This document shows, piece after piece, positions 37,187 to 64,000 of a DNA stretch of 64,000 bases. The first letter of the stretch is position 1. Every line of letters starts with the position of its first letter. The notes under the pieces were generated by a model. The model did not search any database and was not told the origin of the DNA. It was given only the letters and a program-made list of their open reading frames with translations. A program made the position numbers and the translations under genes. The stretch spans positions 84,873 to 148,872 of the forward strand of contig JAHFFE010000001.1 of assembly GCA_023248155.1 (NCBI GenBank), in the 5' to 3' direction. The stretch is from Candidatus Omnitrophota bacterium (GTDB lineage Bacteria > Omnitrophota > Gorgyraeia > 1-14-0-20-64-10).

Positions 37187-37189
37187 AGT

Positions 37190-40246: not shown

Positions 40247-40289
40247 TCTAAGGACACTAGTATAGCAAAAAAAGATAGTTCCGAAAGCA

Positions 40290-40366
40290 TGGTGGGCGAA
40301 ACAGGGCTCGAACCTGTGACCCCTTCCGTGTAAAGGAAGTGCTCTAACCAACTGAGCTATTCGCCC
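40290..40366 (-). tRNA. tRNA-Val (anticodon TAC), CCA encoded
   Basis: Reverse complement GGGCGAATAGCTCAGTTGGTTAGAGCACTTCCTTTACACGGAAGGGGTCACAGGTTCGAGCCCTGTTTCGCCCACCA. Confidence 0.85.
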
Positions 40367-40438
40367 GCTAAGGTGTTCTTTCATTAAAGCATAAAAAGGG
40401 AGATTGCCGAACAGAGAATTTCTGAAAACTCTGTTAAA

Positions 40439-43597: not shown

Positions 43598-43598
43598 A

Positions 43599-46878: not shown

Positions 46879-46907
46879 AAAGTTTCGTTGATGACAATCA
46901 TAGAAAG

Positions 46908-47642
46908 CTAGGATTGTTCCGTATGGGAATATTTAAGATAGGAGGTAATCACGCTTGAAGAGGCGCCAAAAGCTTCCGAAACCCCCTTATTGAGCCAAAG
47001 CGTATCGGTCGTATGTTGACGTAGAATTTCCATATCATGCGAGACCAAAATTAATGTGGCTCCATCTTTGTTTAAAGCTTCAATGCGTGAAAGACTTTTT
47101 CGCTGAAATTCGTCATCTCCCACGCTCCAAGCCTCATCAATCAAAAGAATTTCCGCCTCTGTATGCATGCCCACACTAAATGCCAGCCGCATCATCATGC
47201 CGGTAGAGTAATGCTTGACCGGCATATCAATGAATTCAGAAATGCCGGCGAAATCAATAATGGAGTCCATCTTTTTTTCAATTTCCCGCCGGCGCATTCC
47301 TAACAGAATGCCGTTGAGGTAGATATTTTCACGTCCTGTAAAGTCTCCCTGCATTCCTGAAAAAAGATCCAGCAAAGAAACAACGCGGCCTTTAACCCGA
47401 ACAGAACCATGCGTCGCATTGGTTACGCCGGCGATAATTCGCAACAGCGTTGTTTTTCCAGAGCCGTTAGCGCCAATGATTCCTATCCGTTGCCCCGCCG
47501 AAATTTCCAAATCAAGATTTTTCAATGACCAGAACCAATGTTTTTCTGGATTTCGCAACAAAGATAGAGACTGGGTGATGTATTGAGATCCTTGAAGACG
47601 GCAGTATTTTTTGTAAACCCGAGAAAGCGCAATGCGACTCAT
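46908..47642 (-). CDS. wzt: polysaccharide ABC exporter ATP-binding protein (Wzt/KpsT/TagH-like)
   Basis: Walker A GANGSGKTTLLR, signature YSTGMMMRLAFS, Walker B ILLIDE. Confidence 0.85.
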   Translation of the reverse strand: MSRIALSRVYKKYCRLQGSQYITQSLSLLRNPEKHWFWSLKNLDLEISAGQRIGIIGANGSGKTTLLRIIAGVTNATHGSVRVKGRVVSLLDLFSGMQGDFTGRENIYLNGILLGMRRREIEKKMDSIIDFAGISEFIDMPVKHYSTGMMMRLAFSVGMHTEAEILLIDEAWSVGDDEFQRKSLSRIEALNKDGATLILVSHDMEILRQHTTDTLWLNKGVSEAFGASSSVITSYLKYSHTEQS

Positions 47643-48448
47643 CAGAGCAGGTCCACCAAATCGCCCTCCAGTTTTCCGAATAAACTGACTCCGGCGATAA
47701 ACATAATTACAGAAACTAAGATAGCCGGACCCATCAAATACAGAGGAGGAGCTTGCCCCAGCAAAAGGACTGATCGGTAACTCTCAATAAAACCAGCCAT
47801 CGGATTCCAGCGTGACAACAGGTTGAAATCTTCCGGAACCATCGATTGGGGATAAAAAACAGGGCAGGCGAAAAACCAGAGCCACAACAATTGTGGAATC
47901 GCCTGCCCGACATCTTTTAAGAATACATTCGTTAGTGAAATCAGGCAACCCAATCCGATTAGGAACAGTATATGAACGAATAGAATGGCCGGAAGCCAGA
48001 TTGCTGTCCATGAAATGGGATAGTGATAGTAGATAAACAGTCCGACCAACAGTAATGTCATGACGCATAAGTCTACCACTGCCGAAATCAAGACTGAAAC
48101 CGGGAAAATGATTTTTGGAATATAGACCCGCTTTAAAATATTGGTTACCCCTGAGACAGCAATGACGGATTGAGATGCATAGAGTGATGTAAACGACCAG
48201 GCGACCATTCCTACTGCTGCGAAAAGCGCGTAAGGCACATTACCGGTTGGAATGTCGGAAACTTTGCGAATGTAATGGAAAATACCAGTTAACGCTACCG
48301 GTTGCAGAAATATCCAGCCAAAGCCGAGCAGCGTCTCTTTATAGCGTGTATTGATCCGATGGACGGCCAAATTCAACATCAATTCGATGGTCCATCGAAT
48401 TGATTTTCGGGGAGAGCGCTGGATTTGCAACGCAGGTAGTCTAGCCAC
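47642..48448 (-). CDS. wzm: ABC-2 type polysaccharide exporter permease (Wzm/KpsM-like)
   Basis: 268 aa, 6 predicted TM; ABC-2 pattern; 1-nt overlap with wzt. Confidence 0.8.
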   Translation of the reverse strand: MARLPALQIQRSPRKSIRWTIELMLNLAVHRINTRYKETLLGFGWIFLQPVALTGIFHYIRKVSDIPTGNVPYALFAAVGMVAWSFTSLYASQSVIAVSGVTNILKRVYIPKIIFPVSVLISAVVDLCVMTLLLVGLFIYYHYPISWTAIWLPAILFVHILFLIGLGCLISLTNVFLKDVGQAIPQLLWLWFFACPVFYPQSMVPEDFNLLSRWNPMAGFIESYRSVLLLGQAPPLYLMGPAILVSVIMFIAGVSLFGKLEGDLVDLL

Positions 48449-50375
48449 AAGGTTCTCCCAGAATATAGGAACGGTACCAGCTGTCGAACATCAGAATAGA
48501 GAGTAACTCAGAGGATAGATCTCGCTGTCCCGCGTGATGCGTGCGGCGCATGCGCTGAACCAAGTCACAGTCAAAAATCCCCTCTTTTTTGATTCGCGCG
48601 GGAGTCATCACAGAATCAAAATAATAATTGAAACAACCGGTAAGCCAGCGATTCAATGGACCTCCAAATCCGCGCTTGGGTGCCTTGCGGATTTCTACAG
48701 GGAGCAAATCAGCGAAAGCGTCCGTCAAAATCTTTTTTGAAGACCAAAGATCCATTTTATCATGGAACGGAATAGCTGCGCTTAGCTCAACCAGCCGCAG
48801 ATCCAAAAAAGGGACTCGCGTTTCCAATGCGACCGACATGGTTGCCTTATCCGTGTATTCCAGTAAATTGTCCGATAGAAAAAGCCCTAATTCCGCTGCG
48901 AACACTTTTTGATAATCATTCGATACCGATCCCGAATGCTGCATTCTATCCAGAGCGATTCGCGATGCGGGAACCCAGGGTCCGTTCTGCGAAAAAACCG
49001 GCAAAAGCAGCTGTTTTTCTGCTTCATCGAGGCGATAGCCCCACTGGGTATATTGATCGGCCAGAGGTTGGCCGAATCCGCGGGAAATTCGTTTCATTCT
49101 TCGTAAAAAACCATTTTCACGCGGAGCCATCTCCGCAAACCGGTGCAAAGTTTTTCCGATCGGGCGGGGGAACCGTCTGAGAAGCGGGGCCCAGGGCAAA
49201 AGCCGGTATTTGGCATAACCGCCAAACAATTCATCGCCTCCGACGCCTGAAAGCGCCACAGTGACTTCTTTTCGGGTTTCTTGCGCAATCAGATGTTGAA
49301 GGTACAGCGTTTGATTGGCCAACGGCTGATCGACCCAGCGGATACTTTCGATAAATTTTTCCGGTTTATTCAGCCGAACAGAAAGTTCGTGGTGGTCGGT
49401 TCCGATCATTCGGCTGGCCAGCCGTGCATAATGCGCATCCGATCGGGCACTCTCTCCGAACTCTTCGAAGATGACGGTAAAAGTTTTTAATTTTCCTTTG
49501 GAGTGCGGCGCCATGAGTGCCGCCAGCAGCGTGGAATCAATTCCGCCGCTGAAAAAGAGACCGACCGGCACATCGCTTATCATCTGACGCCGAACGGCAT
49601 CGGTTAACAGCATTCGGACCGATTCTTTGAGCTCATCATAGGAAGCCTGGGTTGCCGTGGTTTTGGAAAATGGAGACCAATATGATTCGGAAGAAAATTT
49701 TCCGGAAACCAAATCCACTGTAATCAAAGTTGCCGGCGGAAGATTCACAATTTCTTTAAAAGCGGTTTTTGGATGCGGAACAAACAGATAGGTGAAATAA
49801 TCCGAGATTCCCTGCCAATCTACCTCGGCGGGAATTAAACCGGTTGCCAGCAATGCCTTGATTTCAGATCCAAAAACAAAACCATTGCCGCGCTGTGCAT
49901 AAAACAGCGGCTTGACACCCAAGGGATCTCTCGCCAGAAGAACCCGCTTCTTTTGAGGATCGTAAATGGCAAAGGCAAAAATCCCGTTTAATTTCTTGAC
50001 GAACGAAGGACCTTCCTCAGCATACAGGTGCAGAAGAACTTCCGTGTCGGTATTTGAGGAAAAACGATGCCCCTGTTTTTCCAGTGTCTTCCGCAGATCC
50101 TGAAAATTATAAATCTCGCCATTGTAAGTGATCCATGCATTGCCCTGTTTTGAGCGGCAGCAGGCGCAGCCCTCGCTCGACATGGGCTGATGCCCAGCCG
50201 CCGAAAGGTCAAGGATGCTGAGCCGGGTATGAATGAATCCGACGGAACGATCCGGGTTTAGGTAAAAACCGTTGTCGTCGGGGCCCCGGTGCTTTAAGGT
50301 CTGAATGAGTGTCTGAAGCCGGCTTTCCTGAACCGGTTCCGATGAAAAGTGAATGATGCCTGCGATGCCGCACAT
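48441..50375 (-). CDS. asparagine synthase (glutamine-hydrolysing) family amidotransferase
   Basis: N-terminal MCGIAGI class-II GATase nucleophile; SGGIDS PP-loop; 644 aa. Confidence 0.9.
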   Translation of the reverse strand: MCGIAGIIHFSSEPVQESRLQTLIQTLKHRGPDDNGFYLNPDRSVGFIHTRLSILDLSAAGHQPMSSEGCACCRSKQGNAWITYNGEIYNFQDLRKTLEKQGHRFSSNTDTEVLLHLYAEEGPSFVKKLNGIFAFAIYDPQKKRVLLARDPLGVKPLFYAQRGNGFVFGSEIKALLATGLIPAEVDWQGISDYFTYLFVPHPKTAFKEIVNLPPATLITVDLVSGKFSSESYWSPFSKTTATQASYDELKESVRMLLTDAVRRQMISDVPVGLFFSGGIDSTLLAALMAPHSKGKLKTFTVIFEEFGESARSDAHYARLASRMIGTDHHELSVRLNKPEKFIESIRWVDQPLANQTLYLQHLIAQETRKEVTVALSGVGGDELFGGYAKYRLLPWAPLLRRFPRPIGKTLHRFAEMAPRENGFLRRMKRISRGFGQPLADQYTQWGYRLDEAEKQLLLPVFSQNGPWVPASRIALDRMQHSGSVSNDYQKVFAAELGLFLSDNLLEYTDKATMSVALETRVPFLDLRLVELSAAIPFHDKMDLWSSKKILTDAFADLLPVEIRKAPKRGFGGPLNRWLTGCFNYYFDSVMTPARIKKEGIFDCDLVQRMRRTHHAGQRDLSSELLSILMFDSWYRSYILGEPCG

Positions 50376-51611
50376 CTAGTTTGGAGCCGCTGTTGCAGTC
50401 ATCGTCGTAAACAGATCGTGGTATTGCTGGATCACCTTTTTCCGATCGAATCCAAAAGCGGCGTTCCGCGCATTTTCTCCCATGGTTTTGCACAGTTCCC
50501 TGTGATCGTACAGAAACCGGATCTTTTCGGCAATATCTACGGCATTGCCTGGAGCCGCCTGCAGACCGCACCGGAACTGGAGCGCGATTCGAGACGTTTC
50601 TGAAGTCGCATCAATGGCGGCGATGTAAGGACGACCGGCCGCTAAAACGCCATACAATTTGCTGGGGGTAATATAACCGGAAACCCCTTTTTTCAGAGAG
50701 ACGATGCAGCAATCCGCTGCGCCATAGACCCCCAAAAGAGCTTCTTTGGTTTGATAGGGGAAAAAGCGGACGTGGGATAAATCCAGGGTGCGCGCACGGT
50801 TTTGCAGCGCCTCTTTCCGAACTCCGTCTCCAACAAAAGCAAATATAAAATCCGGCAGACCTTTTAAAAGAGCCGCCGATTCCAGCAATTGCTCCAGATC
50901 TTGCGAAGCGCCAAAATTTCCTGCATACAGTGCTACGAATTTATCAGCCAGGCCATGTTGCTCCGAGAATGGATTTCTTTTGGAAACGGGATAGGTTTTC
51001 TCAGTATCCGCCCAATTGGTGATGATGGAGATCAATTCTGCGCGCGCATTTTTTTCGTGGATCAGCCGGTTTCGCATGTCGTCATCCAGCGCTAGAATCC
51101 GGTCGGCCGACCGGATTAAAAACCGGTTTACCTGGTCGAGAATTTTTTCAATCAACGGGTTGCTGAAATTTTCAAGCAACCGGCTGACTTCAGGAAAAAT
51201 ATCACTGTAGGCCATGATAAACCGGCACTGGGACTGCCGGGCCGTCCATAAAGCAGCCAGACCAATGATGGGTGGATCGGTCATTGATAACACGAGATCC
51301 GGTTTTTTTACACGTCTTGACGCAATAAAAGAAGAGGCGAAGTAAGTCAGGTAATTGCAGATGCGGCCGGCGAGTATTTTTTTTGAAAAAGAAGTTCCGG
51401 CACAGCGAAAAACGGTTACGCCACGAATAGAAACGGGATTTCCCACCCAGGAAGGCTGATTTTCGCAAGCGGTGGATTTAGGAGCAACGCCGCAAATGAT
51501 CGAGACACGGCAGCCGTGGTCATGCACGAGTCCTTCCGCCAATTCCGTTAACAGCTGGCCTGTTGCGCTTTGTTCGGGATAATAGGCTCGGTTAAAAAGC
51601 AGAAGATGCAT
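50376..51611 (-). CDS. glycosyltransferase family 4 (WcaI-like)
   Basis: MHLLLFNRAYYPEQSATGQLLTELAEGL...; the ORF-track start at 51722 is an upstream TTG extension. Confidence 0.8.
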   Translation of the reverse strand: MHLLLFNRAYYPEQSATGQLLTELAEGLVHDHGCRVSIICGVAPKSTACENQPSWVGNPVSIRGVTVFRCAGTSFSKKILAGRICNYLTYFASSFIASRRVKKPDLVLSMTDPPIIGLAALWTARQSQCRFIMAYSDIFPEVSRLLENFSNPLIEKILDQVNRFLIRSADRILALDDDMRNRLIHEKNARAELISIITNWADTEKTYPVSKRNPFSEQHGLADKFVALYAGNFGASQDLEQLLESAALLKGLPDFIFAFVGDGVRKEALQNRARTLDLSHVRFFPYQTKEALLGVYGAADCCIVSLKKGVSGYITPSKLYGVLAAGRPYIAAIDATSETSRIALQFRCGLQAAPGNAVDIAEKIRFLYDHRELCKTMGENARNAAFGFDRKKVIQQYHDLFTTMTATAAPN

Positions 51612-52932
51612 TTTTAAGTTTCTTTTTTTGCCGGCTGAACAGATATCGGTTAAAATAATAGCCAACCAGAGCACCAGACACAGCGCTGGCTGTAACTTCC
51701 ACCATGGAAAGCAGTGCATCAATCATGCTAAAGCCTGGAAGATACCAGTATAGAAATCCTTTCCAGTCTCCTTTGACGAGGCAGTTTCCAGCTAAAGTAT
51801 CAACAACGCAAACCAGAGTGCTCATCACCAACATGCCACAAAAAACACCGATACTCCCAAAATTAACATAAAATTCAAGCACCTGGCCGATTCCAACGCT
51901 GGTGCCCTCCGAGAATTCAATGCCGGTGTAATCGGCAACTAGATTGCCGCTACCTGCAAAAATATTTTTATCAGGCCAAAGCACGCGCGGAATCAGTGAT
52001 AAAACAGAGTCCCAGAGGGTGGCGCCATGCGCAAAAGGCTGAAGGCCATTACCCATATAATCAATGGCGGCTCCCAGCAAAAGACATTGATTCATGCGCT
52101 CATCGAGCCGATAGAGATGTATTTCATTGTTACTGTCCAACCATTCGAAATTAGTAATCATTCCAGAGATTTCTTCAAGCCGAACGGAAGTAGCTTCTTC
52201 TGCTCGAACTCGTTCACGAAGTAATTCGCGATCTCTCATGTAGGTCACATAAAACGAAAGACCCGCATAAATAATGACCATTCCCAACGCGATCATTTTC
52301 CAGCGGGGTTTCAAAAAATTAGCAATAAAAGAGAAGATTGAAAGAGCAATCATAGCCCCATAACTTAAAAACCCCTGCTGGATCATTGTAAGTAAAGGAA
52401 TTCCAATAAAAGAAAATAAACTGTAAATAAAGAATTGTCCGGAGTTTCTTGTTTGCCATGCTTTCCACAAACAAAGGCATAATCCGGCCACCAGAAATCG
52501 CCACATTGAGGAAGAAAGAGCGGCTCCGGACGGGATTTTACTGGCAATGGGGATAATGAAGAAAAAACTAAATAATCCGAATAACACATAAACAAGGGGT
52601 AATCCCAGCGTAAAAGCATCCGATGGCATTTTGGGTTTATCTACTTGTAATGAGTGTATTAGAAATGGACCAACAAAAACAGAACCGATTCCAAACCCGA
52701 TGATGCCATAGGTCGCCATTTCAAATCCGAGGTCGTTGAAATATTGCTCCCCCAGAGAGTACCACTCATGCTGGTAGATCCATCCGCCGATGCCGTAAAG
52801 AGACCATAGCTGTAATAAATAAGCCAATACAAGACCAGCGCTGGGAGATTTCATTCGCCAGCGGCTAACGACAACTACCAAGCTTACGAAGAGCCAGGCC
52901 CACCAGCAAAATTCAAACGAAAGCGCTTTCAT
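51592..52932 (-). CDS. polytopic membrane protein, putative O-antigen/EPS polymerase (Wzy-like) or ligase-like
   Basis: 446 aa; ~7 N-terminal TM, a ~200-aa loop domain, then further TM. Located between glycosyltransferases. Confidence 0.45.
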   Translation of the reverse strand: MKALSFEFCWWAWLFVSLVVVVSRWRMKSPSAGLVLAYLLQLWSLYGIGGWIYQHEWYSLGEQYFNDLGFEMATYGIIGFGIGSVFVGPFLIHSLQVDKPKMPSDAFTLGLPLVYVLFGLFSFFFIIPIASKIPSGAALSSSMWRFLVAGLCLCLWKAWQTRNSGQFFIYSLFSFIGIPLLTMIQQGFLSYGAMIALSIFSFIANFLKPRWKMIALGMVIIYAGLSFYVTYMRDRELLRERVRAEEATSVRLEEISGMITNFEWLDSNNEIHLYRLDERMNQCLLLGAAIDYMGNGLQPFAHGATLWDSVLSLIPRVLWPDKNIFAGSGNLVADYTGIEFSEGTSVGIGQVLEFYVNFGSIGVFCGMLVMSTLVCVVDTLAGNCLVKGDWKGFLYWYLPGFSMIDALLSMVEVTASAVSGALVGYYFNRYLFSRQKKKLKNASSAF

Positions 52933-52996
52933 GGCAATTTTTGGTAAGCTGCAATGGTTTTATCATTCAGTTGAACGCATAATTTGGCAATTTGTT

Positions 52997-54208
52997 TCAA
53001 GGAAGTGGGCCATATTCTTGAAGAACTTGTTCATAGAGATGCCGCATCGATTGCGCTACGGTCTGAGTCGAAAAGACTGTCGAAACCAATTGTTGACCCG
53101 CTTTTCCCATGGCCTCGGTTTCCGTACGGTTTTCCAGTAGCGAAACGATGGCCTCGGCCCAAATTTTCGAATGGGCTGTCTCGACCCGTCCGCATTGATT
53201 TCTGGCTATCCAGGCAGCGATGCCCACTTCTGGAGAAACGAGTACGGGCAGACCGATGGCCATTGCTTCTAGAACAGAGACACCGAAATTCTCATCCCGG
53301 GAAGGCAGCAAGAAAAGCTGGCTGTCACGGTAGCAAGCCCATTTTTCTACTCCCGACAGTGAAGGGATAAATGTAGCATGACCGCTGAGGTTGTTTTTCT
53401 TTAGCACCGCCTGCACGGAGTTTACGGCACCTTCATTGGGTCCTACGAAAACCAACTGCAATTTTTCTTTAGAAGTTATCTGTGACAATGCGCAGGCCAG
53501 CAGCGCCGGCCTTTTTTTAGGATGCATGCGGCCCAAAAAAAGCAGAATGGAACGGTTCCCAATTTCAGGATATTTTTTTCTAAAATCGCCCGAATGAGTT
53601 GCCGGAATTAATTCCGGGCGGATGGATCGCGGGACGACCGAATGGGGCGTGACGGTGCCAAATCGTTCGGCGCGCGCCGCCTCCAGAGGACTGGTGAAAT
53701 GGATGCGCTGCGCATGCATTAAAGTAAATCGCTCGATCAAAAAACCATAACACCGCTTGAACCAGCTGCGCCGCTGCATTCCGTAAGGGTCCAGCGCTCC
53801 GCAGGGAGAAATAATGTAAGGAATTTTAAATCGTCTGCAGAGCCGCGATGCAATCAGCGTTGGATAAAGCCAGATGGAATGGATATGAACGATGTCAAAA
53901 GAAGAAAGGTTTTTCTCCAGCGCTTCTTTAAGCGCAGGGCTGAACGCATAACGTTGGCCGAGCCAATTCCATGGATGTTCTGGAAAATGTTCAATCGAAA
54001 CACCCAAGGAGCGGACCTGTTGATCCATGGGACCGTCGGTTTTCTCGTCGTGCCCGCGCCAGGTGGTGTAAATGGTAACAGCACATCCGTTTTGGATTAA
54101 CCCGGAACAAAGTTCGCGCACGCTGACGGGAACTCCCCCATCTCGAAAGGCCAGTGAGGGAACAACATGAAGTACTTTTATAATCAGGATTCCCCCCGTG
54201 ATACCCAA
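52997..54208 (-). CDS. glycosyltransferase family 4
   Basis: ...LLFLGRMHPKKRP...LFLLPSRDENFGVSVLEAMAIGLPVLVS.... Confidence 0.8.
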   Translation of the reverse strand: MGITGGILIIKVLHVVPSLAFRDGGVPVSVRELCSGLIQNGCAVTIYTTWRGHDEKTDGPMDQQVRSLGVSIEHFPEHPWNWLGQRYAFSPALKEALEKNLSSFDIVHIHSIWLYPTLIASRLCRRFKIPYIISPCGALDPYGMQRRSWFKRCYGFLIERFTLMHAQRIHFTSPLEAARAERFGTVTPHSVVPRSIRPELIPATHSGDFRKKYPEIGNRSILLFLGRMHPKKRPALLACALSQITSKEKLQLVFVGPNEGAVNSVQAVLKKNNLSGHATFIPSLSGVEKWACYRDSQLFLLPSRDENFGVSVLEAMAIGLPVLVSPEVGIAAWIARNQCGRVETAHSKIWAEAIVSLLENRTETEAMGKAGQQLVSTVFSTQTVAQSMRHLYEQVLQEYGPLP

Positions 54209-55920: not shown

Positions 55921-56780
55921 TGGCGCTTATTCCCAGCGTGTTCGACCCGGCGCAATTCATCCAGCCGAATGTCGATCACTAAACGAAACCAGAACGCTTG
56001 CAGAAAATGGAACACAAACCCTTCCTTGCCGTCGAGAAAACCCAGCAGGATCACGTAGCGATAGAAAAAGTATCCAAACGGTCTGATGTACAGCGGCATC
56101 TGGTAGTACCGGCTTTTAAGCCAGAGAATTCGCTGGTCCGGTGTTCCAAAAAACCGGGGCGTGGTTTTCCAGGACAGGCGTCCGGACCGGCGTTCATTCT
56201 CCTCGGCCGCAAATGCATCTGCATAGCGCAGATGTTTTTCAAGATAAAACAGGATCGCATCTTCCTTGCGGTTATGTTCCTTGAGAATTCCCCTGAGTTG
56301 GCCGCATGAACCGTTGACGTAGACGCGAGTGTCTTGTTCCTTCGGATCCAGTTGAGACTTCGAACGACGGAAAAGTTTCAACAGTCGTTTTCCGCCATAT
56401 CCGCCGTAACGGATTTTTTTCCCTCGGAAATATTGCAGACGGCGCAGATAATAGCCAGCATGCGCCGGAGTCCCTTCGCACAGAAGGCAGCAGATATCCT
56501 CTCTTAATTCGGGAGTCAGCACCTGGTCCGCTTCAAGAATCAAAATCCAGTCATTGCGAATCGGCAGATGGTCGAGGCTCCATTGGAAGATCCAGGGAAT
56601 AATTCGCGAATGGTCGTAGGGAAGCCGTTCGACATAATCACACAGAGGACGTGCAATATCAACCGTGCGATCGGAGCTCTCGGAATCGATCACGAAGATC
56701 TGATCAGCGAGGCCGCGCACGCTTTCAAGACAGAATGCAATGTTGAGTTCTTCATTGCGCGTGACTACGAGAACGGTCAA
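55917..56780 (-). CDS. glycosyltransferase family 2
   Basis: MTVLVVTRNEELNIAFCLESV...VIDSESSD.... Confidence 0.8.
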   Translation of the reverse strand: MTVLVVTRNEELNIAFCLESVRGLADQIFVIDSESSDRTVDIARPLCDYVERLPYDHSRIIPWIFQWSLDHLPIRNDWILILEADQVLTPELREDICCLLCEGTPAHAGYYLRRLQYFRGKKIRYGGYGGKRLLKLFRRSKSQLDPKEQDTRVYVNGSCGQLRGILKEHNRKEDAILFYLEKHLRYADAFAAEENERRSGRLSWKTTPRFFGTPDQRILWLKSRYYQMPLYIRPFGYFFYRYVILLGFLDGKEGFVFHFLQAFWFRLVIDIRLDELRRVEHAGNKRH

Positions 56781-56812
56781 AGGCGCTTTTATCTCAGCTT
56801 CTCCTGCGTATG

Positions 56813-58750
56813 TTACGAGTTATCGTTCTCTTCCGCCGGATTATCGTCGGGCGTAATCAGCGCGAATGGTTTCCGCTGTTTCTTTTCTTTTTTCCGTTGT
56901 TTCTTCTCGGAAGGTTGTTTCCGGTTCTCTCCATAGGAGTAGTAATACCGGTAGCCGCGCTCCAGCTCCAGCTGGGCGCCATTCAAGACGCCGCCGATCA
57001 GTTTGGCGCCGACATCCACCAATTTCTGCTTTCCAGCCACAATGGCATCGCTGTGCGTTTGATTAGCTCGCACCACATAGACGACTCCATCGGCCATCGT
57101 TGCGAGTACGCAAGCATCGGCGGCTACCAAAACGGGAGGAGAATCGATCAGGATATAGGAGTATTCCTTTCTCCACTCATCCAGCATTTGTTTGAAGCGG
57201 TTGCTTTGCAGAAGATCGGTCGGTTGCGATGATGAAAACCCGGAAGGAACAACAAACAGACCTTCGCTATCCGGAACCGGATGAACAATCTCAGAAGCCT
57301 GCGCCTGATCCTGAAGAGCGTTGCTTAATCCGGGTTCAATCGGTATCTGAAACGAATGATGAAAAGTCGGGCGGCGCAGGTCGGCGTCAATGACGAGCGT
57401 TTTTCGGCCGATCTCCTGCAGTGCAATCGCTAAATTGGCGGTGAAAGTCGACTTGCCTTCAGAGGGCAAGGCGCTGGTAAATAATAAAACATGGGATTGC
57501 GCAGACGGGATAATGAATTCCAGAGTGGTGCGGATGGAGCGGATATTTTCAGCCATCGGCGATTGCGCGTCTCGCATGATCAACGGCCGGCGATGGCGCA
57601 GCAATGTTTTCCTGTTTCCGGCCTGCGGGATATGCCCCAGGAATGGAATTTCCAGCAGCGATTCAAAGGCACTGCGCGTCCGCACGGTGCTGGTCATTAG
57701 TTCCAGTACCAGCGCGATTCCAAAACCAATCAGGAATCCAAGGAACGCGGCCGTCAAAATGGTCCGTTTGCGCATCGGACCGACCGGGATATCCGAAACC
57801 TGGGCGTAATCGACTACTTGCACATTGTTGTTCTGAACACCCTCTTGAACAGACAACTCTTTAAGCCGGGTCAACAGCACATTGTAAATCGATTCGCTGG
57901 TCTTCGCTTCCCGCAGCAGTGTATTGAACTGGATCGACAGGCGGCTTAACTCCAGCGCGCGCTGTTCCTGGTCGAATAGGGCCAGCTGCAGTTCTTTTTC
58001 TTTGGTAAACAGCTCAACTAATTCCGGGTGTTTTTCGCGGTATTTGGCCTCGGCTTCGATCCGTTTTTCGCGTGTTTTGGTCAGCGACGCATTGAGCGCT
58101 TGTAAACGCTGAATGACGGTGTTTTGGCCCTGCTCATCAAGATCAACGCCGTTGTGCTGTTCGCGGAAATCCTGCAGATTGATCTGCGCGTCCCGCATCT
58201 TTTTTTCCATCTTGTCGACTTCCTGCTTGAGCCAATCAATTCCGCCGGTCGTCATCTGGCGCTTGCGTTCGAGGTTGATTTTGGCGTACATTTCAGCGAC
58301 GGCATTGGCGATGCGCGCCACAAGCTTCGGCTTGGTTCCAACCACGCTGACGTCGACCAGCTTGGTTCCGCGCAGCGGAGTGACCGAAACGATTTTGCGC
58401 AGCACCGCGACCGGATCTTTCGCGCGCGAATAGGGAGGGAATGAAGTCAGATTTAATTCTTCAAGAACGCGCGCCATCACGGCGCGGCTGGAAATGACCT
58501 GATATTCGGTTGGCAGAGAAGAGCGGTCTACCGCGGAGGTCGAACCGACATCGCCCTGAAATCGCACAACGCGCGTGACATCCGGTTCAATCAGGATCCG
58601 AACCGTTGACCGGTAGATGTTCGGTTGGCGCGCCATATGCAGCGTGGCCAGCAACGTTGCGACGAATGTCACTGACAAGACCAGTTTCCGGTGTAGCCGG
58701 AAGATCCTCAGGTAGTCATCCAGTGTCCATTCCTGAAGCTGAATTTGCAC
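56813..58750 (-). CDS. wzc: polysaccharide co-polymerase / BY-kinase (Wzc-like, PCP-2a)
   Basis: N-terminal Wzz domain with TM; coiled-coil; Walker A SALPSEGKST, A' VIDADLRRP, B ILIDSPP; C-terminal Tyr cluster YRYYYSYG. Confidence 0.85.
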   Translation of the reverse strand: MQIQLQEWTLDDYLRIFRLHRKLVLSVTFVATLLATLHMARQPNIYRSTVRILIEPDVTRVVRFQGDVGSTSAVDRSSLPTEYQVISSRAVMARVLEELNLTSFPPYSRAKDPVAVLRKIVSVTPLRGTKLVDVSVVGTKPKLVARIANAVAEMYAKINLERKRQMTTGGIDWLKQEVDKMEKKMRDAQINLQDFREQHNGVDLDEQGQNTVIQRLQALNASLTKTREKRIEAEAKYREKHPELVELFTKEKELQLALFDQEQRALELSRLSIQFNTLLREAKTSESIYNVLLTRLKELSVQEGVQNNNVQVVDYAQVSDIPVGPMRKRTILTAAFLGFLIGFGIALVLELMTSTVRTRSAFESLLEIPFLGHIPQAGNRKTLLRHRRPLIMRDAQSPMAENIRSIRTTLEFIIPSAQSHVLLFTSALPSEGKSTFTANLAIALQEIGRKTLVIDADLRRPTFHHSFQIPIEPGLSNALQDQAQASEIVHPVPDSEGLFVVPSGFSSSQPTDLLQSNRFKQMLDEWRKEYSYILIDSPPVLVAADACVLATMADGVVYVVRANQTHSDAIVAGKQKLVDVGAKLIGGVLNGAQLELERGYRYYYSYGENRKQPSEKKQRKKEKKQRKPFALITPDDNPAEENDNS

Positions 58751-58756
58751 CCGCGA

Positions 58757-59419
58757 TTACTCCTTTGCCTTGATTTTTGCCCCGGATTTTTCCCAGGCCC
58801 CTTTGAGCGTGATTCCGACGGAGCGAAGGAGTATCCAGAGATCAAGTCCCAACGAACAGTTCCGTATATACGACAAGTCCCAAATCAGCCTCTGCTGGAG
58901 GGATGGATTTTTATCTCCGTACAGCTGCGCGACTCCGGCCAGTCCCGGTCTGACCGACACCCGCAGTTTCCCTCCAGGAAACTCTCCGATTTCTTCCAGC
59001 TCTTCCGGGATGAGCGGCCGGGGGCCCACGAAGCTCATCTCTCCTCGGAAAATATTGAGCAACTGCGGCAATTCATCCATCGCGCAGGCCCTTAATCCCC
59101 GGCAAAATCGGTCCGCGACGCGGCCGTTGTCTGCCAGCGTCCTAAATTTAAGAACGGTAAAAAACGCGCCATTTTTCCCAACGCGCGGTTGCCGGAACAG
59201 GACAGGAGATCCCAGGCTGCTTCGGATCTTTGCCGCGATCAGCGCCATCGGCAGCATGAAAAAAAGGAGACCGATCACCGACAGCGTCAGATCAAAAATA
59301 CGCTTTCCGTACCGCGCGTATACGCCCATGTCGAAAGTCTCCGCGCTAGCCGGTTTCCGACAAAACAGTCTGGTTGGAATCGACGACTGCTTTCTCGACG
59401 GAAATATTCGCGTAGCCAT
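58757..59419 (-). CDS. polyprenyl-phosphate sugar-1-phosphate transferase (WbaP/WcaJ C-terminal type, bacterial sugar transferase)
   Basis: ...PVLFRQPRVGKNGAFFTVLKFRTL...SFVGPRPLIPEE... Confidence 0.85.
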   Translation of the reverse strand: MATRIFPSRKQSSIPTRLFCRKPASAETFDMGVYARYGKRIFDLTLSVIGLLFFMLPMALIAAKIRSSLGSPVLFRQPRVGKNGAFFTVLKFRTLADNGRVADRFCRGLRACAMDELPQLLNIFRGEMSFVGPRPLIPEELEEIGEFPGGKLRVSVRPGLAGVAQLYGDKNPSLQQRLIWDLSYIRNCSLGLDLWILLRSVGITLKGAWEKSGAKIKAKE

Positions 59420-61247
59420 CTTTTAGCGTATACTCCTTGACCCGTAAAGGGTAGCGCTTTTTTTCAATCGCGGCGATCACCTGCGTTTCAAGATGTTTCA
59501 GAATTCCCTGCGGAATCGGCACCGGCCCGATCTTTACTTCGCGCAGCTTTGGATGCACGCGGTAGTCGACTACTTCAATGCCGATCCTCGCCTCTAGATC
59601 GAACCGTAAAAGGCCGATACGAACGGTTCCTTTGCCCAAGAAACCTTCCGGTTTGATTTTCGTTTGAATATCACTGATTTGTCCGGAGAACCGCCGTTGA
59701 GCTTCGCGCACGACCAGGTCCTGGAATTCAAGTTCGGTGAAGCGCCGCGTTATCCGTGTTTCTCCGGCTGCTTCCATGTATTTTGCCAGGCGATCCGCGA
59801 ATACCGTAACGAAAACGGGAAGAAATTCAGTCATCCATTTCATCAGGGGACTGCCGGTTTCCATCGCCATGGTTTCAGAAGCGGATAAGTCCGGCTGTTT
59901 GTCTATGTCCGCCGGTTCCGGTTTCCTTCCGGTGGTTCCCGGAATAGACCAGTCCGTTGAGCCTCCTTTTCCCCGCTGATATTCCTGTATTCGCTTCAAT
60001 GTGCCGCTGAAAGAACTGGCCGGAAAATGGGATTCTGCCTCCCGGAAATAATAGCGCGCTTTTTCCGGATCTTTGATGTCATACAGATAGAGCGAGGCCA
60101 CCTGGACCGTTCCAATGGAGCGCAGCGCGGCGTCGGCCTTTGTTTTAGAAAGCGCTTTTTCGTAAAGCGCAGCGGCTGTTGCCAAATCACCGCATGATTT
60201 GTACAGTTCGGCCAGCTGATAGTAAGCGGCGACTTTCCAGCTCTCGGAGCGGCCGTGCTTGATCAGCGCTTGGAAACAGCGAACCGCTTCTTCAATCCGC
60301 CCCAGCGAACGGAAGCACCAGCCGGCCTTGTACAGAGACTGCTCCGCCGAGGCCCCTTCCGGAGCCGATTGATAAGCCAGTTCCAGTATCGGGGCGGCTT
60401 TATCCAGCCGCGAACTTTGAATCAGCTTTAGTCCCAGCTGAAAAGCCGCTTGCTGGCGGTCTAATCCGGCCGGCAGCCCGCCTAAATTCTTTTCAAGGCG
60501 GTCCAGTTCTTTCTGGCCGGACACCGATTTTTCGAAACGGTTCATGAGTTCCTGCGCGACCATGATATCGGTTGCGTTGCGCGCCTGTCCTGCGGCCTGA
60601 CGGTATTCCTGCCGCGCTTCGTCGGTTTTCCCCAGTTTCTGGTAAACGCCGCCCAGCCGCATTCGCAGCGCAGCACGGCCTTCGTACCGTGGGTAATTCG
60701 TCAGCAGCTGCGCGTAAAGCGCGGCCGATTCTTTCAAAAGCCCGCGTTGTTCCAGCGCAATGGCCCGCTCCATGCCGGCCGAATCAATTTCCGGAGAGAG
60801 CGCTTCTCCGAGCACTTGCCGCGGCAGCAGAACGGCGCCGTGAAAAACGCCGCGCACGCCGAGCACCATTTCATCCAGCGTGCGCAGAATATTCGGCCGT
60901 TCCGCTAATTGATCATCCGCGACGGTGCCGATCATCGCCTGGGCATCGTCCACGGGTCTTTGCAGGTTTTGGGAACTTAAAACACCCTGACTGTACTGCA
61001 GCGCCGAAACGGTTTTTAAATCGGTTTCTTCCCGCGCCAACTGGGAAGTCAGCGTCTGGTTGACCAACAGCAGTGCCGCTTCGGCCTGGCCGACGCCGGT
61101 CGATCCGTTGAGCACGGTAAACGAGGTGCGCAAATTTTTGAGGTTTACGTCGAGGATCAGCTTGCTGTAGATCGGAAAGAACGCCAGGACAGCGGTGATG
61201 GCAACCGGCAGTTGAAGCACCGTAACCCAGCGTCGCAGGTCGTTCAT
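59346..61247 (-). CDS. membrane-anchored TPR-repeat protein with an unknown C-terminal domain
   Basis: N-terminal TM VTVLQLPVAITAVLAFF; several TPR-like repeats (ALYAQLLTNYPRYEG..., AYYQLAELYKSCGD...); overlaps the sugar transferase by 74 nt. Confidence 0.55.
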   Translation of the reverse strand: MNDLRRWVTVLQLPVAITAVLAFFPIYSKLILDVNLKNLRTSFTVLNGSTGVGQAEAALLLVNQTLTSQLAREETDLKTVSALQYSQGVLSSQNLQRPVDDAQAMIGTVADDQLAERPNILRTLDEMVLGVRGVFHGAVLLPRQVLGEALSPEIDSAGMERAIALEQRGLLKESAALYAQLLTNYPRYEGRAALRMRLGGVYQKLGKTDEARQEYRQAAGQARNATDIMVAQELMNRFEKSVSGQKELDRLEKNLGGLPAGLDRQQAAFQLGLKLIQSSRLDKAAPILELAYQSAPEGASAEQSLYKAGWCFRSLGRIEEAVRCFQALIKHGRSESWKVAAYYQLAELYKSCGDLATAAALYEKALSKTKADAALRSIGTVQVASLYLYDIKDPEKARYYFREAESHFPASSFSGTLKRIQEYQRGKGGSTDWSIPGTTGRKPEPADIDKQPDLSASETMAMETGSPLMKWMTEFLPVFVTVFADRLAKYMEAAGETRITRRFTELEFQDLVVREAQRRFSGQISDIQTKIKPEGFLGKGTVRIGLLRFDLEARIGIEVVDYRVHPKLREVKIGPVPIPQGILKHLETQVIAAIEKKRYPLRVKEYTLKDGYANISVEKAVVDSNQTVLSETG

Positions 61248-61253
61248 TGTTGG

Positions 61254-62378
61254 CTAGAATAGTCTCCGTTTCACATACAGTGTGTCTCTCGGGTGAATCG
61301 CGATGTTGGAATCCCGACCTGTTAGAATCCGGTCGATATTCGCCCGAAGGATCACTTTTTTATCGCCGACCGAACGGATAACCTCAATTCGGCTCGAACC
61401 GAATTTTGTGATGCCGCCAGCCATGCTGATAGCGGTCAAAAGATCAAGCGGCCCCTCAATGGGATAACTGCCCGGCGCGCTGATTTCGCCCAGCGCCGTG
61501 AATTTCGCGCCAATAATCTGTACCAAGACCTGACGGTTGTCCTGTGTGGGGGTTCGAATATACAGCGTGTCGCGGGGCAGAATCGGCAGGTTCGGTTCCT
61601 TGCCGTTTAAAATATTGTCGATATTCGAGCGAATCACCACCTGCTTGTTGCCCTGCCGGCGGATAATCTCCACCTGGCTGTTGCGCAGGGTCTGAACATC
61701 ACCGGCTTTGCTGATGGCCGTCAGTAGATCGATGGAACCGGTCATCTCGTAAAAACCAGACTCGCCTTTTTGGCCTAAAATAGAGAATTGCGCCCTGGAG
61801 AAACGGACCGTCACCTGGGGGTTGATCAGAAAATCTTTATCCAGCCGTTCCCGGAGTTCCTGTTCAACGGCTGAGATTGTTTTTCCCGCCGCCTGGACTA
61901 TTCCAATGAGTGGAAAACTAAAAGAGCCGTCTTCCTGAAGCTGGACTTTTTGGGTTAAGTCATCGTTTTTATAAACCGTGATATCGAGTTGATCTCCCGG
62001 GACCAGCTGATAAGAATATGCCAGTGCTCCCGCCGGTGAGATGATCTCGCTGGGAATATTTTGAGAGCCTCCTTGAGCCGCGCTTGTTTTAGAGGCCGAT
62101 AGCTGTTCGGAGATGGCCAGTTCCAGTTCCCGAGTCGAGAGCCCGGCTGCCTGGATCGTTCCAATCGGCGGGAAGAAAACCAGGCCATCTTCCTGGACAA
62201 TGGTTTTTATTCCCGAGCCGGGATTGGAAAAAAGACCAATCCCCAATTCATCCCCAGGCTGCAGACGATAGGGCTGCTGCGCCGGAGAATTTTTTTCAGC
62301 TGCTGTTGCGCAGCCGGTTTGCGCGACTAAAGCCGCGATCAGAAAAAAAGAAAAAAAGATTTTCACACAGCGCCGCAT
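61254..62378 (-). CDS. wza: polysaccharide export outer-membrane/periplasmic protein (Wza family)
   Basis: Lipoprotein-like signal (…LVAQTGC); PGD-x-L motifs YRLQPGDELGI / YQLVPGDQLDI; two SLBB-like repeats ending ...PRDTLYIRTP / ...PRDTLYVKRR. Confidence 0.8.
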   Translation of the reverse strand: MRRCVKIFFSFFLIAALVAQTGCATAAEKNSPAQQPYRLQPGDELGIGLFSNPGSGIKTIVQEDGLVFFPPIGTIQAAGLSTRELELAISEQLSASKTSAAQGGSQNIPSEIISPAGALAYSYQLVPGDQLDITVYKNDDLTQKVQLQEDGSFSFPLIGIVQAAGKTISAVEQELRERLDKDFLINPQVTVRFSRAQFSILGQKGESGFYEMTGSIDLLTAISKAGDVQTLRNSQVEIIRRQGNKQVVIRSNIDNILNGKEPNLPILPRDTLYIRTPTQDNRQVLVQIIGAKFTALGEISAPGSYPIEGPLDLLTAISMAGGITKFGSSRIEVIRSVGDKKVILRANIDRILTGRDSNIAIHPRDTLYVKRRLF

Positions 62379-63838
62379 CAGAAGCTGCCCTCAATGTTGA
62401 AATAAATCTGGTGATCCGAATAGTCGCGCGTGCGCGACCGCCGGTAAGTATAGTTCAGCAAAACACGCAGCTGTTCCTGCACTTGAAACGCAAGGCCCGG
62501 CTTGACGGAATAGAGTGTTTGCAGGGTTCTTTCAGTTGACCCTGGAACTACATCCGAACGGCTTGAGCGTTGCCAGGTATAATTGCCATTCAACGATAAA
62601 TCCAGCCGCGGCGTTAGCTGGTAAACAAGGCTCATCGTGGGCGATCGGCTGCGAAACCGGGTCCGGCCGGTCGAAAACGAAGTGGTCCGCGCATCCAGAT
62701 AGGACACCAGCATCCTGGTTCTCCGGTTGAGTTCTCGTTCCCACTGGGCCCGAAAATTCGGATCGGTGGACCGCTTGCTGCCTCGGACTCTATTGCGATC
62801 CAAAGAAAAAGTGGCGGAAAGTGTTTCAAACCGCGTCACTTCGTGCCGCACTCCCAAACGGCCTCCGTATTGATCGGAATTTTTGCTTTCATTGCCGGGA
62901 ATCTCGATCTCTTGGTAGGAAATTCCGCTCACCAGAAGCCAGGTGGGAACCAGGTCCCGCTCCCAGTCGAGCGTGGAGTCCCAGGTGTTCCGGTCGGTGT
63001 CGGAATCATTAACGATATGGTCATCAAATTTCCGATAGATGGAATTGAGCGCCAGTTTATTGCTTCGGTTAAGCGCATGACTGACTCTTCCCGAGAATGT
63101 TTGCGCGCTGGTTTGCGACAGCTTCGGGTTTTGGCGCAGCACATCAATCTCTTCGTCCCCAAATACAAACGAATGGTCTATGACGACCGTATAGCCCATC
63201 CGATACTGCGTAGGCCCCCCTGGATCAAGATCAATAAAAGTGACCAGGTCATGGTTGACGGCATTGGCGTTGCGCCGCATGTACCGGAACGCGTTGACTT
63301 CATACTGAAAACCATACAACAGCGGCCCTCGGGGATCGGCGAACAGAACCACATTTTCCAGCGTGCCTTTGAAGTCGCTTTGGCGCTGATTATCCTGAAG
63401 ATCAACGTTGGAGTCATAGAGAAATTCGGCCCCGTATCCGATCCGCGTCCTCTTGGCGAAAAACTCAAAAAACGAATCGCTTGATTGGTCGGAATGCGCA
63501 TAGACTTTATCGCGGCTGAGCCGGTCGGCCAACTGGTCGGAGGGGGTTGAAAAAAGCGATTTCCGCTCAAAAGAACTTCGGGAGGCGAACATCGGGGCCG
63601 GTGCCGAATAAGCCGTAGGCGCTTCTTGAGCCGTAGTTTCAGGTTGAAAAATTGTTGGTGTAAACTGGGCAGCCGGCTTGGCTGGCGCGGTCTCCTCTGA
63701 AGCAGGAGTGCTGGTCGTTTCTTCTGAACTGGACGAAGAAGCCGACTCCTCCGCCGCGGCAACCCGGGAGGCGCCGGCGCAGAAAAACAAACCTATCAGA
63801 AATAAGAAAACTGTCTTCGCTAGAAGTTTCTCCACCAT
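62378..63838 (-). CDS. outer-membrane beta-barrel protein (signal peptide, Ser/Thr-rich linker, C-terminal ...GSF)
   Basis: Signal peptide MVEKLLAKTVFLFLIGLFFCAGASRVAA; low-complexity SSSSSEETTSTPASEETAP; alternating amphipathic strands; terminal aromatic F. Confidence 0.5.
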   Translation of the reverse strand: MVEKLLAKTVFLFLIGLFFCAGASRVAAAEESASSSSSEETTSTPASEETAPAKPAAQFTPTIFQPETTAQEAPTAYSAPAPMFASRSSFERKSLFSTPSDQLADRLSRDKVYAHSDQSSDSFFEFFAKRTRIGYGAEFLYDSNVDLQDNQRQSDFKGTLENVVLFADPRGPLLYGFQYEVNAFRYMRRNANAVNHDLVTFIDLDPGGPTQYRMGYTVVIDHSFVFGDEEIDVLRQNPKLSQTSAQTFSGRVSHALNRSNKLALNSIYRKFDDHIVNDSDTDRNTWDSTLDWERDLVPTWLLVSGISYQEIEIPGNESKNSDQYGGRLGVRHEVTRFETLSATFSLDRNRVRGSKRSTDPNFRAQWERELNRRTRMLVSYLDARTTSFSTGRTRFRSRSPTMSLVYQLTPRLDLSLNGNYTWQRSSRSDVVPGSTERTLQTLYSVKPGLAFQVQEQLRVLLNYTYRRSRTRDYSDHQIYFNIEGSF

Positions 63839-64000
63839 TCCCCTTCCTGTTGGCGCGACCGCTCTCGGGGAGGGAGCTGGTTTTCGATAGCTTCATTCAG
63901 CAATTTCTGGTCGGCGGCGTCGATCACGGAGAACCGCAAACCCAATTCAAATCCGTTCATTTTTGGAATCGGAATACAGCGAACCACCTGAGCCTGCACC
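63820..64000 (-). CDS. 3' end of an unidentified CDS entering from beyond the window
   Basis: Open minus-strand frame ...IPIPKMNGFELGLRFSVIDAADQKLLNEAIENQLPPRERSRQQEGEWWRNF*; its stop overlaps the OMP start by 19 nt. Confidence 0.3.
   Translation of the reverse strand, partial: VQAQVVRCIPIPKMNGFELGLRFSVIDAADQKLLNEAIENQLPPRERSRQQEGEWWRNF

Follow-up and report, generated by a model that had tools for sequence, protein, structure and literature searches.

The 64-kb stretch of Candidatus Omnitrophota contig JAHFFE010000001.1 analysed here (positions 84,873 to 148,872; hereafter the window, in whose own coordinates positions are given) carries a polysaccharide locus that brings together the components of two assembly routes. 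From 63838 to 46908, thirteen tightly packed open reading frames (ORFs) on the minus strand combine an ATP-binding cassette (ABC) exporter, Wzm/Wzt, with a Wzy-family membrane protein, the polysaccharide co-polymerase (PCP) Wzc, an outer-membrane polysaccharide export (OPX, Wza-family) protein and an outer-membrane beta-barrel. The presence of these components in a single minus-strand operon was the original prediction, and it is confirmed by Pfam and NCBIfam typing of the ORFs listed for the window. Wzx/Wzy-dependent and ABC-dependent assembly are treated as alternatives with distinct partner proteins (e.g. PMC12004945, PMC9601211). Our results suggest, with about an even chance of being correct, that the region from ~37–40 kb to beyond 64 kb is one integrated system of Wzy-dependent design, in which Wzm/Wzt takes the place of the flippase Wzx.

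In such a system, a PglC-like phosphoglycosyl transferase (PGT) would prime undecaprenyl phosphate, and seven or eight single-domain glycosyltransferases (GTs) would build a large lipid-linked unit. These would be GT4a, GT2 and GT4b from the minus strand, three GT4 enzymes and a Glyco_trans_1_2 enzyme from the plus strand, and possibly a GT9. The unit would be carbamoylated, methylated by FkbM and probably amidated by an AsnB-like enzyme, and Wzm/Wzt would transfer the complete undecaprenyl-pyrophosphate (Und-PP)-linked glycan to the periplasmic face. There, the Wzy-family enzyme, with its Arg-rich loop in the periplasm, would polymerise the unit under control of Wzc, a PCP-2a with a bacterial tyrosine kinase (BY-kinase). 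The polymer would leave through a composite outer-membrane translocon consisting of a helix-less OPX, an 18-strand porin and a tetratricopeptide repeat (TPR) scaffold, and a PilZ protein encoded just upstream would tie the output to cyclic di-GMP (c-di-GMP). From the gene content, protein families, synteny and cross-phylum conservation described below, we infer which substrate Wzm/Wzt carries, that the Wzy-family protein is a polymerase, that the parts (barrel and OPX included) are physically coupled, and how the system is regulated. The presence of one PGT and many single-domain GTs points to a defined large unit rather than a processive homopolymer. All GTs of the window are single-domain by Pfam, the sole GT2 has no predicted transmembrane segment, and there is no membrane-embedded processive GT2 synthase in the window set. 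Replacement of a flippase by an ABC protein has a precedent in Wzk, an ABC flippase (not an ABC-2 protein) that can replace the MOP-family flippase MurJ (PMC4990322).

In line with the original prediction, no Wzx was found in the window. A six-frame hydrophobicity screen of the 64 kb revealed only YidC, UbiA, Wzm and the Wzy-like protein as proteins with at least four transmembrane segments. Nor does a Wzx gene lie immediately beyond the window, a finding that would have refuted the original prediction. None was found in the 3.4 kb past its end, which are supplied by a contig with 99.98% identical DNA (L091; L numbers denote loci used for comparison), or in 10 kb of the orthologous, 85%-identical locus L088. 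Among 80 related loci, searched with E. coli RfbX, E. coli WzxC and the Wzx of L089 as seeds, a Wzx-family gene was present in only two (L054 and L022), and Wzm/Wzt is absent from the available flank of both. The 80 loci contain 26 multi-transmembrane ORFs besides Wzy. The ten that most resemble a Wzx proved to be something else, namely MraY-like GT4, PMT_2 or an acyltransferase, or had no match.

The locus L054 (Methylomirabilota) shows where the flippase is found. Its gene order is AsnB, WzxC-like (E 2.6e-43), GT4, FkbM, GT4, GT1_2, Wzy, GT4a, GT2, carbamoyltransferase and GT4b. In L028, L030, L052 and L081, the order is AsnB, Wzm, Wzt, GTs and Wzy. AsnB thus adjoins Wzm-Wzt in these four loci and Wzx in L054, where the flippase occupies the Wzm-Wzt slot. 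Hence, the cassette can carry either translocase.

The arrangement was first described as an atypical hybrid; it is real, and it recurs across phyla as a cassette around the Wzy family. A scan with a Wzy-family profile, using one genome per species, yielded 79 loci. They come from at least six phyla, with Acidobacteriota, Planctomycetia, Omnitrophota, Verrucomicrobiota, Chloroflexota, Cyanobacteria, Gemmatimonadota, Methylomirabilota, Nevskia and Ramlibacter represented. Pseudomonadota are also among the phyla that carry the cassette. According to local searches with the window proteins, the canonical array is [Wzc]-AsnB-Wzm-Wzt-FkbM-GT4-GT4-GT1_2-GT4-Wzy-GT9-(AsnB)-GT4a-GT2-carbamoyltransferase-GT4b-(PGT). 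Of the 56 loci whose 10-kb upstream flank is complete, 23 contain Wzm/Wzt. In 21 of these 23, the pair precedes Wzy on the same strand; in the other two (L007 and L010), it is found downstream, as in the window. The resulting 41% is a lower bound, because 11 of the 23 pairs sit 7.8–8.9 kb away, at the edge of the 10-kb flank. As a rough estimate, a random 20-kb stretch holds a Wzm/Wzt pair ~1% of the time.

Gene order and sequence are conserved as well. In metagenome-assembled genomes (MAGs) labelled Omnitrophica, Wzm homologues are 50–62% identical and their contigs carry PGT, Wzc, (GT2), carbamoyltransferase, GT4, Wzy-like, epimerase, GT4, Wzm and Wzt, with convergent GT/FkbM genes. The operon order including Wzm-Wzt is kept at ~40–60% protein identity in MAGs of Omnitrophota and Planctomycetia. 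Across phyla, the GT4, Glyco_trans_1_2 and carbamoyltransferase orthologues are mostly 35–63% identical (43–63% for the carbamoyltransferase). In related loci, the distance from Wzy to the downstream GT4a is 0–2.5 kb, frequently with a GT9-like gene or AsnB in between, and GT4a is followed by the GT2 orthologue in most loci. Wzc was found in ~12 loci, for instance in the co-directional order Wzc-AsnB-Wzm-Wzt in L028 (a Bryobacteraceae MAG) and L030 (Nevskia soli), and OPX in three, one of them with a BBP2_2 porin.

Some loci of the survey have further features. A contig labelled Bifidobacterium (L072, CAZOAZ010000045.1), probably mis-binned, carries a BBP2_2 outer-membrane porin, OPX, Wzc and Wzm/Wzt. 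In L028 (15997–21276) and L030 (14468–17608), the cassette is followed by genes for proteins of 750–1050 aa with a pro-kumamolisin activation domain (sedolisin-like). In Bryobacterales and Nevskia, five such large proteins encoded after the cassette were scanned as candidate export parts and rejected: three are sedolisin-like, and the other two gave a sub-threshold arylsulfotransferase match or nothing.

The features of the window locus are as follows, in the order of transcription for the minus strand:

63820..64000, minus strand: 3' end of a PilZ-domain gene (last 59 codons of 138 aa), cut by the window end
62378..63838, minus strand: outer-membrane beta-barrel porin with signal peptide (weak OMP_b-brl match in Pfam; AlphaFold2 model)
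61254..62378, minus strand: OPX protein of the Wza family (Poly_export 5e-39, and SLBB)
59346..61247, minus strand: TPR protein with N-terminal membrane anchor (multiple TPR families; transmembrane segment at residues 8–26)
58757..59329 (longest ORF to 59419), minus strand: PGT, PglC-like, ~190 aa (Bac_transf 7e-45)
56813..58750, minus strand: Wzc, PCP-2a/BY-kinase (Wzz, GNVR, AAA_31; TIGR01007 above cut-off)
55917..56780, minus strand: GT2 (Pfam)
54184..55920, minus strand: NodU/CmcH-type O-carbamoyltransferase (Carbam_trans_N 6e-59, Carbam_trans_C 2e-71)
52997..54208, minus strand: GT4a (HpsP/XYAG1-like, with scores under their cut-offs)
51592..52932, minus strand: Wzy-family polytopic membrane protein (family-level similarity, topology)
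50376..51611 (ORF to 51722), minus strand: GT4b, WcaI-like (Pfam/NCBIfam)
48441..50375, minus strand: AsnB-type glutamine amidotransferase (Asn_synthase 2e-79; TIGR01536 above cut-off)
47642..48448, minus strand: Wzm, ABC-2 permease (ABC2_membrane)
46908..47642, minus strand: Wzt, ABC ATPase, 244 aa (ABC_tran)
40439..46878, plus strand: FkbM, GT4 (435 aa), GT4 (393 aa), Glyco_trans_1_2 (362 aa), epimerase/dehydratase of the short-chain dehydrogenase/reductase (SDR) type, GT4 (404 aa) (Pfam)
37190..38470, plus strand: GT9, heptosyltransferase-like (Pfam and NCBIfam)

The 12 junctions of the thirteen-gene array measure -1, +6, +16, +6, +32, -4, -25, +64, -20, 0, -8 and -1 nt in order of transcription. 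Hence, the tight head-to-tail packing originally described holds, but the junctions are not all overlaps of 0–25 nt, since gaps reach 64 nt. These values assume internal Met starts for the PGT (M31, giving +16) and GT4b (M38, giving -20), which are consistent with the beginning of the family matches and with the gene call in L088. Promoter and terminator scans gave counts at or under the shuffled expectation and were uninformative. No NCBIfam equivalog matched the cassette GTs or the Wzy-like protein. The AsnB-type enzyme probably amidates a uronic acid.

The region 34000–54000, with the GT, Wzy, AsnB, Wzm and Wzt genes, has a G+C content of 0.45–0.50, compared to 0.52–0.56 across the export module (54000–64000) and 0.54–0.57 for the pyr genes. 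This step suggests a mosaic or horizontally acquired origin of the glycan cassette.

By its closest relatives, the Wzm/Wzt pair of the window is a bona fide O-antigen-type exporter rather than KpsMT-like. The top match of Wzm in the Protein Data Bank (PDB) is Wzm of Aquifex aeolicus (6M96/6OIH, E 1e-13), followed by TarG. That of Wzt is Aquifex Wzt (E 2e-55), with an alignment spanning the nucleotide-binding domain only; the window Wzt has no carbohydrate-binding domain. Typing as KpsMT, i.e. as a group 2 system, was rejected, as KpsM scored 24.6 bits against a cut-off of 300 and Kps structures were absent among the PDB matches. Likewise, the PCP-3 model BexC/CtrB/KpsE scored 29 against a cut-off of 437, and no Capsule_synth match (KpsC/KpsS) was found in any protein scanned.

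For the Wzy-family protein, ~10–11 transmembrane segments were predicted from sequence, and the AlphaFold2 model contains 11 transmembrane helices (pLDDT 89.6, pTM 0.91). The protein has an Arg-rich loop of ~115 residues (about 233–349), which the positive-inside rule puts in the periplasm. This topology of 11 helices plus a large loop, for which a prediction had been proposed as a check, is compatible with a Wzy polymerase. Invariant loop residues in the family alignment include R233, R235, R239, R279, N281, R316 and K322. The protein belongs to a distinct family: a word-indexed search gave 438 matches, and among 1.84 billion sequences there are 627 representatives at E<=1e-30. PF14296 (O-ag_pol_Wzy) is matched by 28 of the 32 aligned relatives (best E 8e-7) and PF01901 by four, and some relatives carry the NCBI name "O-antigen polysaccharide polymerase Wzy family". 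The assignment to the Wzy family is thus supported at family level, and the protein is a putative polymerase. Comparison of the family profile by hhalign with single E. coli WaaL, WbbH, WcaD and RfbX sequences gave nothing, and is uninformative; a PDB sequence search was also empty.

Several observations weigh against an integrated system in which Wzm/Wzt feeds a Wzy polymerase. The polymerase label is weakly grounded, because the window protein itself has no Pfam match and Foldseek found no solved structure resembling its confident AlphaFold2 model. The translocase swap rests on one clear locus, L054, which is known only from AsnB onward. Furthermore, a minority of the cassettes have Wzc and OPX alongside, and in the cyanobacterial and Chloroflexota cassettes ABC genes are missing from the surrounding 10 kb. 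In the Wzm/Wzt systems that have been characterised, the exported polymer is already complete in the cytoplasm (PMC8892547). The Wzt of many relatives is long (~420–490 aa) and has an adjoining FkbM gene, and this combination is the signature of capped, fully made chains; the Wzt_C domain was shown for L028, and its presence in ~20 other long Wzt proteins is deduced from their length. Moreover, Wzx may lie far from its cluster, as for the spore-coat polysaccharide of M. xanthus (cited in PMC9601211), and our search for Wzx was local only.

Part of this evidence would fit a classical ABC-dependent pathway, with synthesis and capping of the whole glycan in the cytoplasm before its export by Wzm/Wzt. 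The role of the Wzy-like protein would then be en-bloc transfer, as a WaaL-type ligase or as an O-oligosaccharyltransferase, onto lipid A-core, protein or another acceptor. In the window lineage, Wzc, OPX and porin would provide surface delivery, with a PCP-2a doing the job of a PCP-3. We regard this explanation as unlikely, although it deserves serious consideration. A point in its favour is that the S-layer glycan clusters of Geobacillus unite Wzm/Wzt and a PGT of the WbaP type with a methyl cap and a transferase of the Wzy_C type. The long Wzt beside FkbM recalls the methyl-capped O-polysaccharides recognised by Wzt (PMC8892547), but the Wzt of the window clade lacks the carbohydrate-binding domain. 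The NCBIfam scan also gave a weak RfaL match (E 4.7e-4). Yet none of the 32 relatives matches the ligase family Wzy_C, against the 28 that match PF14296, and no WaaL-type (Wzy_C) protein was identified. The kinship of Wzm/Wzt to the Aquifex O-antigen exporter, the GT9 heptosyltransferase-like gene and lpxA nearby, and the absence of Wzc and OPX within 10 kb of most cassettes would also agree with a classical pathway. However, a set of eight GTs, each with a single domain, would be unusual if the polymer were made processively as in ABC-type systems. Wzx, a handler of short units, replaces Wzm/Wzt at the same position in L054, and Wzc is co-directional in the Wzm/Wzt array of L028, L030 and the window.

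Alternatively, two conventional pathways might be juxtaposed or co-transcribed. One would be a Wzx/Wzy-Wzc-Wza exopolysaccharide pathway with its Wzx encoded elsewhere. The other would make an ABC-dependent O-antigen-like polymer with the plus-strand GTs and a WecA-type primer encoded elsewhere. This seems improbable to us. It would account for the position of Wzm-Wzt, which come last in the operon and face the plus-strand GT/FkbM genes, and the genes for Wzx and WecA often lie apart from the clusters they serve. The lower G+C content across 34–54 kb than across 54–64 kb suggests a mosaic origin, and an OX6 cluster of Aeromonas with both gene sets has been read as adjacent O and K loci (PMC6124807). 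In most phyla, however, the GTs found on both strands of the window form one co-directional array, in which Wzy is central and Wzm/Wzt and the PGT mark opposite ends. This array travels across phyla with Wzm/Wzt and almost never with Wzx. In addition, wzm overlaps the AsnB gene, which is a cassette gene, by 8 nt, and the window contains a single PGT and no MraY/WecA-type protein. The earlier suggestion of two polymers made from one operon is therefore the less likely reading, given one PGT and mostly one co-linear GT array flanked by Wzm/Wzt and PGT.

A third explanation, an exopolysaccharide locus of the exosortase/PEP-CTERM type (XrtA or XrtY), was first suggested by AsnB, the TPR protein, the barrel and EpsE-like matches. 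Sub-threshold matches were found to EpsE, pepcterm_export, pepcterm_TyrKin, eps_aminotran_1, XYAG1 and XrtY_assoc_Wzy, but the scores lie far under the curated cut-offs (e.g. 428 vs 817, 116 vs 180 and 27 vs 420). The window has no exosortase-like multi-transmembrane ORF, and the PrsT match is negligible. We rejected this candidate on the basis of these scores and the lack of an exosortase, and consider it very improbable.

Returning to the integrated system with Wzm/Wzt in place of Wzx, its unit extends beyond the interval 46908–63838 originally proposed, which is too small; the PilZ gene upstream and the convergent plus-strand genes (~37–47 kb) belong to it too. By homology, these convergent GT and methyltransferase genes are part of the same system. 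The plus-strand GT4 and Glyco_trans_1_2 proteins are mostly 35–56% identical to products of cassette genes that lie directly upstream of Wzy in most other phyla, and homologues of FkbM, 28–50% identical, are among the cassette genes of other phyla. The GT9 is probably also part of the cassette, with homologues of 26–29% identity encoded directly downstream of Wzy in several loci. The plus-strand epimerase has no close counterpart in the cassettes of other phyla. At the opposite side, the L091 contig (1–3612) carries genes for an FAD oxidoreductase, an HIT protein, an M48 peptidase and a second PilZ protein (160 aa). These genes are tightly packed and on the same strand, and hence the transcription unit may start further upstream.

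The export module has the order PilZ-barrel-OPX-TPR-PGT-Wzc, which is conserved in relatives. The PilZ gene, of which the window holds the last ~180 nt, overlaps the barrel start by 19 nt. Its translation matches the PilZ proteins of L088 and L091. The Pfam PilZ domain was found in L088, L089 and L091, and the full-length protein of L091 has the RRHLR and DVSGGG motifs. The barrel gene overlaps the OPX gene by 1 nt and lies directly upstream of OPX in all relatives seen. In the barrel protein, residues 16–119 are disordered, forming a linker of ~100 aa rich in Ser, Thr, Glu and Pro, followed by 18 predicted beta-strands. Only 11 homologues were found (the window sequence itself being P0197), and the AlphaFold2 model, built from 11 sequences, has an overall pLDDT of 63, with 60–90 in the barrel, so that the 18 strands are of moderate confidence. 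Its structural neighbours with the best TM-scores are the alginate porin AlgE and the 18-strand OprD/Occ porins.

The OPX protein lacks the C-terminal helix that spans the outer membrane (class 3/D4-less). SLBB_2 extends to residue 369 of 374, so that the protein ends five residues past its last SLBB domain; a Wza_C match is absent, and the PDB alignment stops at 373. A composite translocon of a helix-less OPX and an 18-strand barrel was described in 2022 for EpsY/EpsX of M. xanthus (WzaX/WzpX) and others (PMC9601211, PMC9603273). By analogy, the barrel and OPX of the window fit this known translocon, and known biology explains the extra barrel. The original proposal that barrel and TPR protein are additional export components is reasonable in this light, given the conserved module and an OPX without outer-membrane helix, but the barrel is no novelty. 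The TPR protein is a candidate periplasmic scaffold, and the position of its gene between OPX and PGT is kept in L088–L091, L007 and L010.

The PGT was first labelled WbaP-like. Instead, it is a small monotopic PglC-like enzyme, as its top PDB match is PglC (8E37), aligned over the full length and not just to the catalytic end of WbaP, and the gene call in L088 gives 190 aa. In Wzc, the Walker motifs A (SEGKST), A' (VIDADLRRP) and B (ILIDSPP) are all present, the C-terminus bears a cluster of Tyr residues (GYRYYYSYG), and the closest PDB relative is Wzc of E. coli K30 (7NHR, E 5e-52). Together, these features identify it as a PCP-2a; the alternative of a PCP-3 is not supported, as that model scored far under its cut-off. 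In L089 and L090, where the barrel is 42% identical, the export module is followed by genes for a DegT aminotransferase and a Polysacc_synt (Wzx) protein, which indicates that this module normally serves a pathway of the Wzx/Wzy type.

Other genes of the window deserve mention. Between GT9 and FkbM, at 38419–40136 on the minus strand, lie two class-I S-adenosylmethionine (SAM) methyltransferase genes, one of which has 55–60% identical homologues within the cassette in three other loci. On the plus strand, 34155–37097 encodes a UbiA-family protein, which scored 252.6 bits against a cut-off of 234 for decaprenyl-phosphate phosphoribosyltransferase, and two SDR epimerase/dehydratases. These genes look like a polyprenyl-phosphate pentose donor pathway beside the glycan cluster. 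An FkbM gene (30982–31878, plus strand) is wedged between a pyrK-like gene and pyrD; its product is 41–47% identical to FkbM proteins encoded in the cassettes of other phyla, which looks like displacement of a cassette gene into the pyrimidine operon. A plus-strand ORF of 769 aa (17634–19943), flanked by gyrA and a gene for a tetrapyrrole methylase, has no Pfam or NCBIfam match. Positions 1–17400, with yidC, parA, parB, dnaA, dnaN, gyrB and gyrA, represent the neighbourhood of the replication origin, and the minimum of the cumulative GC-skew is at about 6–10 kb.

Compared to known systems, the locus shares features with several and differs from each of them. It shares the Bac_transf PGT, single-domain GTs, a Wzy-family protein, a PCP-2a with Tyr-rich tail and OPX with the group 1 capsule and colanic acid systems of E. 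coli (WbaP/WcaJ, Wzx, Wzy, Wzc, Wza). However, it has an ABC-2 exporter and no Wzx, no Wzb phosphatase was seen in the operon, its OPX has no outer-membrane helix and has a porin and a TPR protein as partners, and its PGT is of the small PglC type. The ABC-dependent O-polysaccharide exporters (Aquifex aeolicus, E. coli O9a/O8, Klebsiella O2a) include the closest solved relatives of Wzm/Wzt, and the long Wzt beside methyltransferases in relatives of the cassette is a further likeness. In contrast to these systems, the window exporter shares an operon with PCP-2a, OPX and a Wzy-family protein, is accompanied by a large set of single-domain GTs, and has a Wzt without binding domain. Like the group 2 capsule system (KpsMT-KpsE-KpsD), the locus combines an ABC-2 exporter, a PCP and an OPX. 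Yet its PCP is a kinase-bearing 2a instead of a PCP-3, KpsMT and KpsC/KpsS are lacking, and a PGT and a Wzy-family protein are present.

On the export side, the EpsY/EpsX translocon of M. xanthus (also VpsN/VpsM) shares a helix-less OPX beside a predicted 18-strand barrel, and a PCP-2a. The window barrel differs in having no detectable sequence link to those porins and in its long disordered Ser/Thr-rich linker, and the module adds a dedicated TPR protein and a PilZ gene, with an ABC exporter as the inner-membrane translocase. Synthase-dependent secretion (AlgK/AlgE, PgaA, BcsC, with PilZ control) shares the TPR scaffold, the 18-strand porin, with AlgE as top structural match, and PilZ. In the window, however, the PilZ protein is a stand-alone protein of 138 aa, a membrane-embedded processive synthase is lacking, and OPX and PCP are present. 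ABC and Wzy-pathway genes also occur together in the OX6 O-antigen cluster of Aeromonas hydrophila (PMC6124807), but OX6 has wzx and the window has not, and the window combination is conserved across phyla.

A translocon composed of OPX and porin is already known, and mixed ABC/Wzy clusters have previously been noted as oddities and interpreted as adjacent loci (PMC6124807). Cyanobacterial surveys list ABC and Wzy gene sets in the same genomes (PMC4594306). In the open-access literature, we found no account of a conserved pathway that lacks Wzx and unites Wzm/Wzt and a PCP-2a with a Wzy-family protein, and no report of an exchange between Wzx and Wzm/Wzt in one cassette.

With a Wzy-family enzyme, in many cases accompanied by a PCP-2a, and Wzm/Wzt together in a cassette conserved across phyla, the textbook division into two routes appears blurred. 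Tentatively, and with somewhat less confidence than we would place in an even chance, we propose that it represents a widespread fourth assembly route, in which a Wzy-family polymerase, together with a PCP-2a kinase, would receive its Und-PP-linked repeat units from Wzm/Wzt rather than from Wzx. The translocases would be interchangeable in one cassette across at least six phyla, and the lineage of the window would add a translocon of OPX, porin and TPR protein that is controlled by c-di-GMP through PilZ. Named and maybe culturable taxa carry the cassette (Nevskia soli, Ramlibacter, Egbenema and Anabaena), which opens the question to direct testing. If the ABC exporter indeed feeds a Wzy polymerase, the substrate range of Wzm/Wzt and the partner rules of PCP-2a proteins would need to be widened, and typing tools that classify capsule and exopolysaccharide loci by pathway would misclassify such loci. 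Judged from its gene content, the cassette probably marks a conserved complex glycan, carbamoylated, methylated and amidated, that is common to soil Acidobacteriota, cyanobacteria and candidate phyla.

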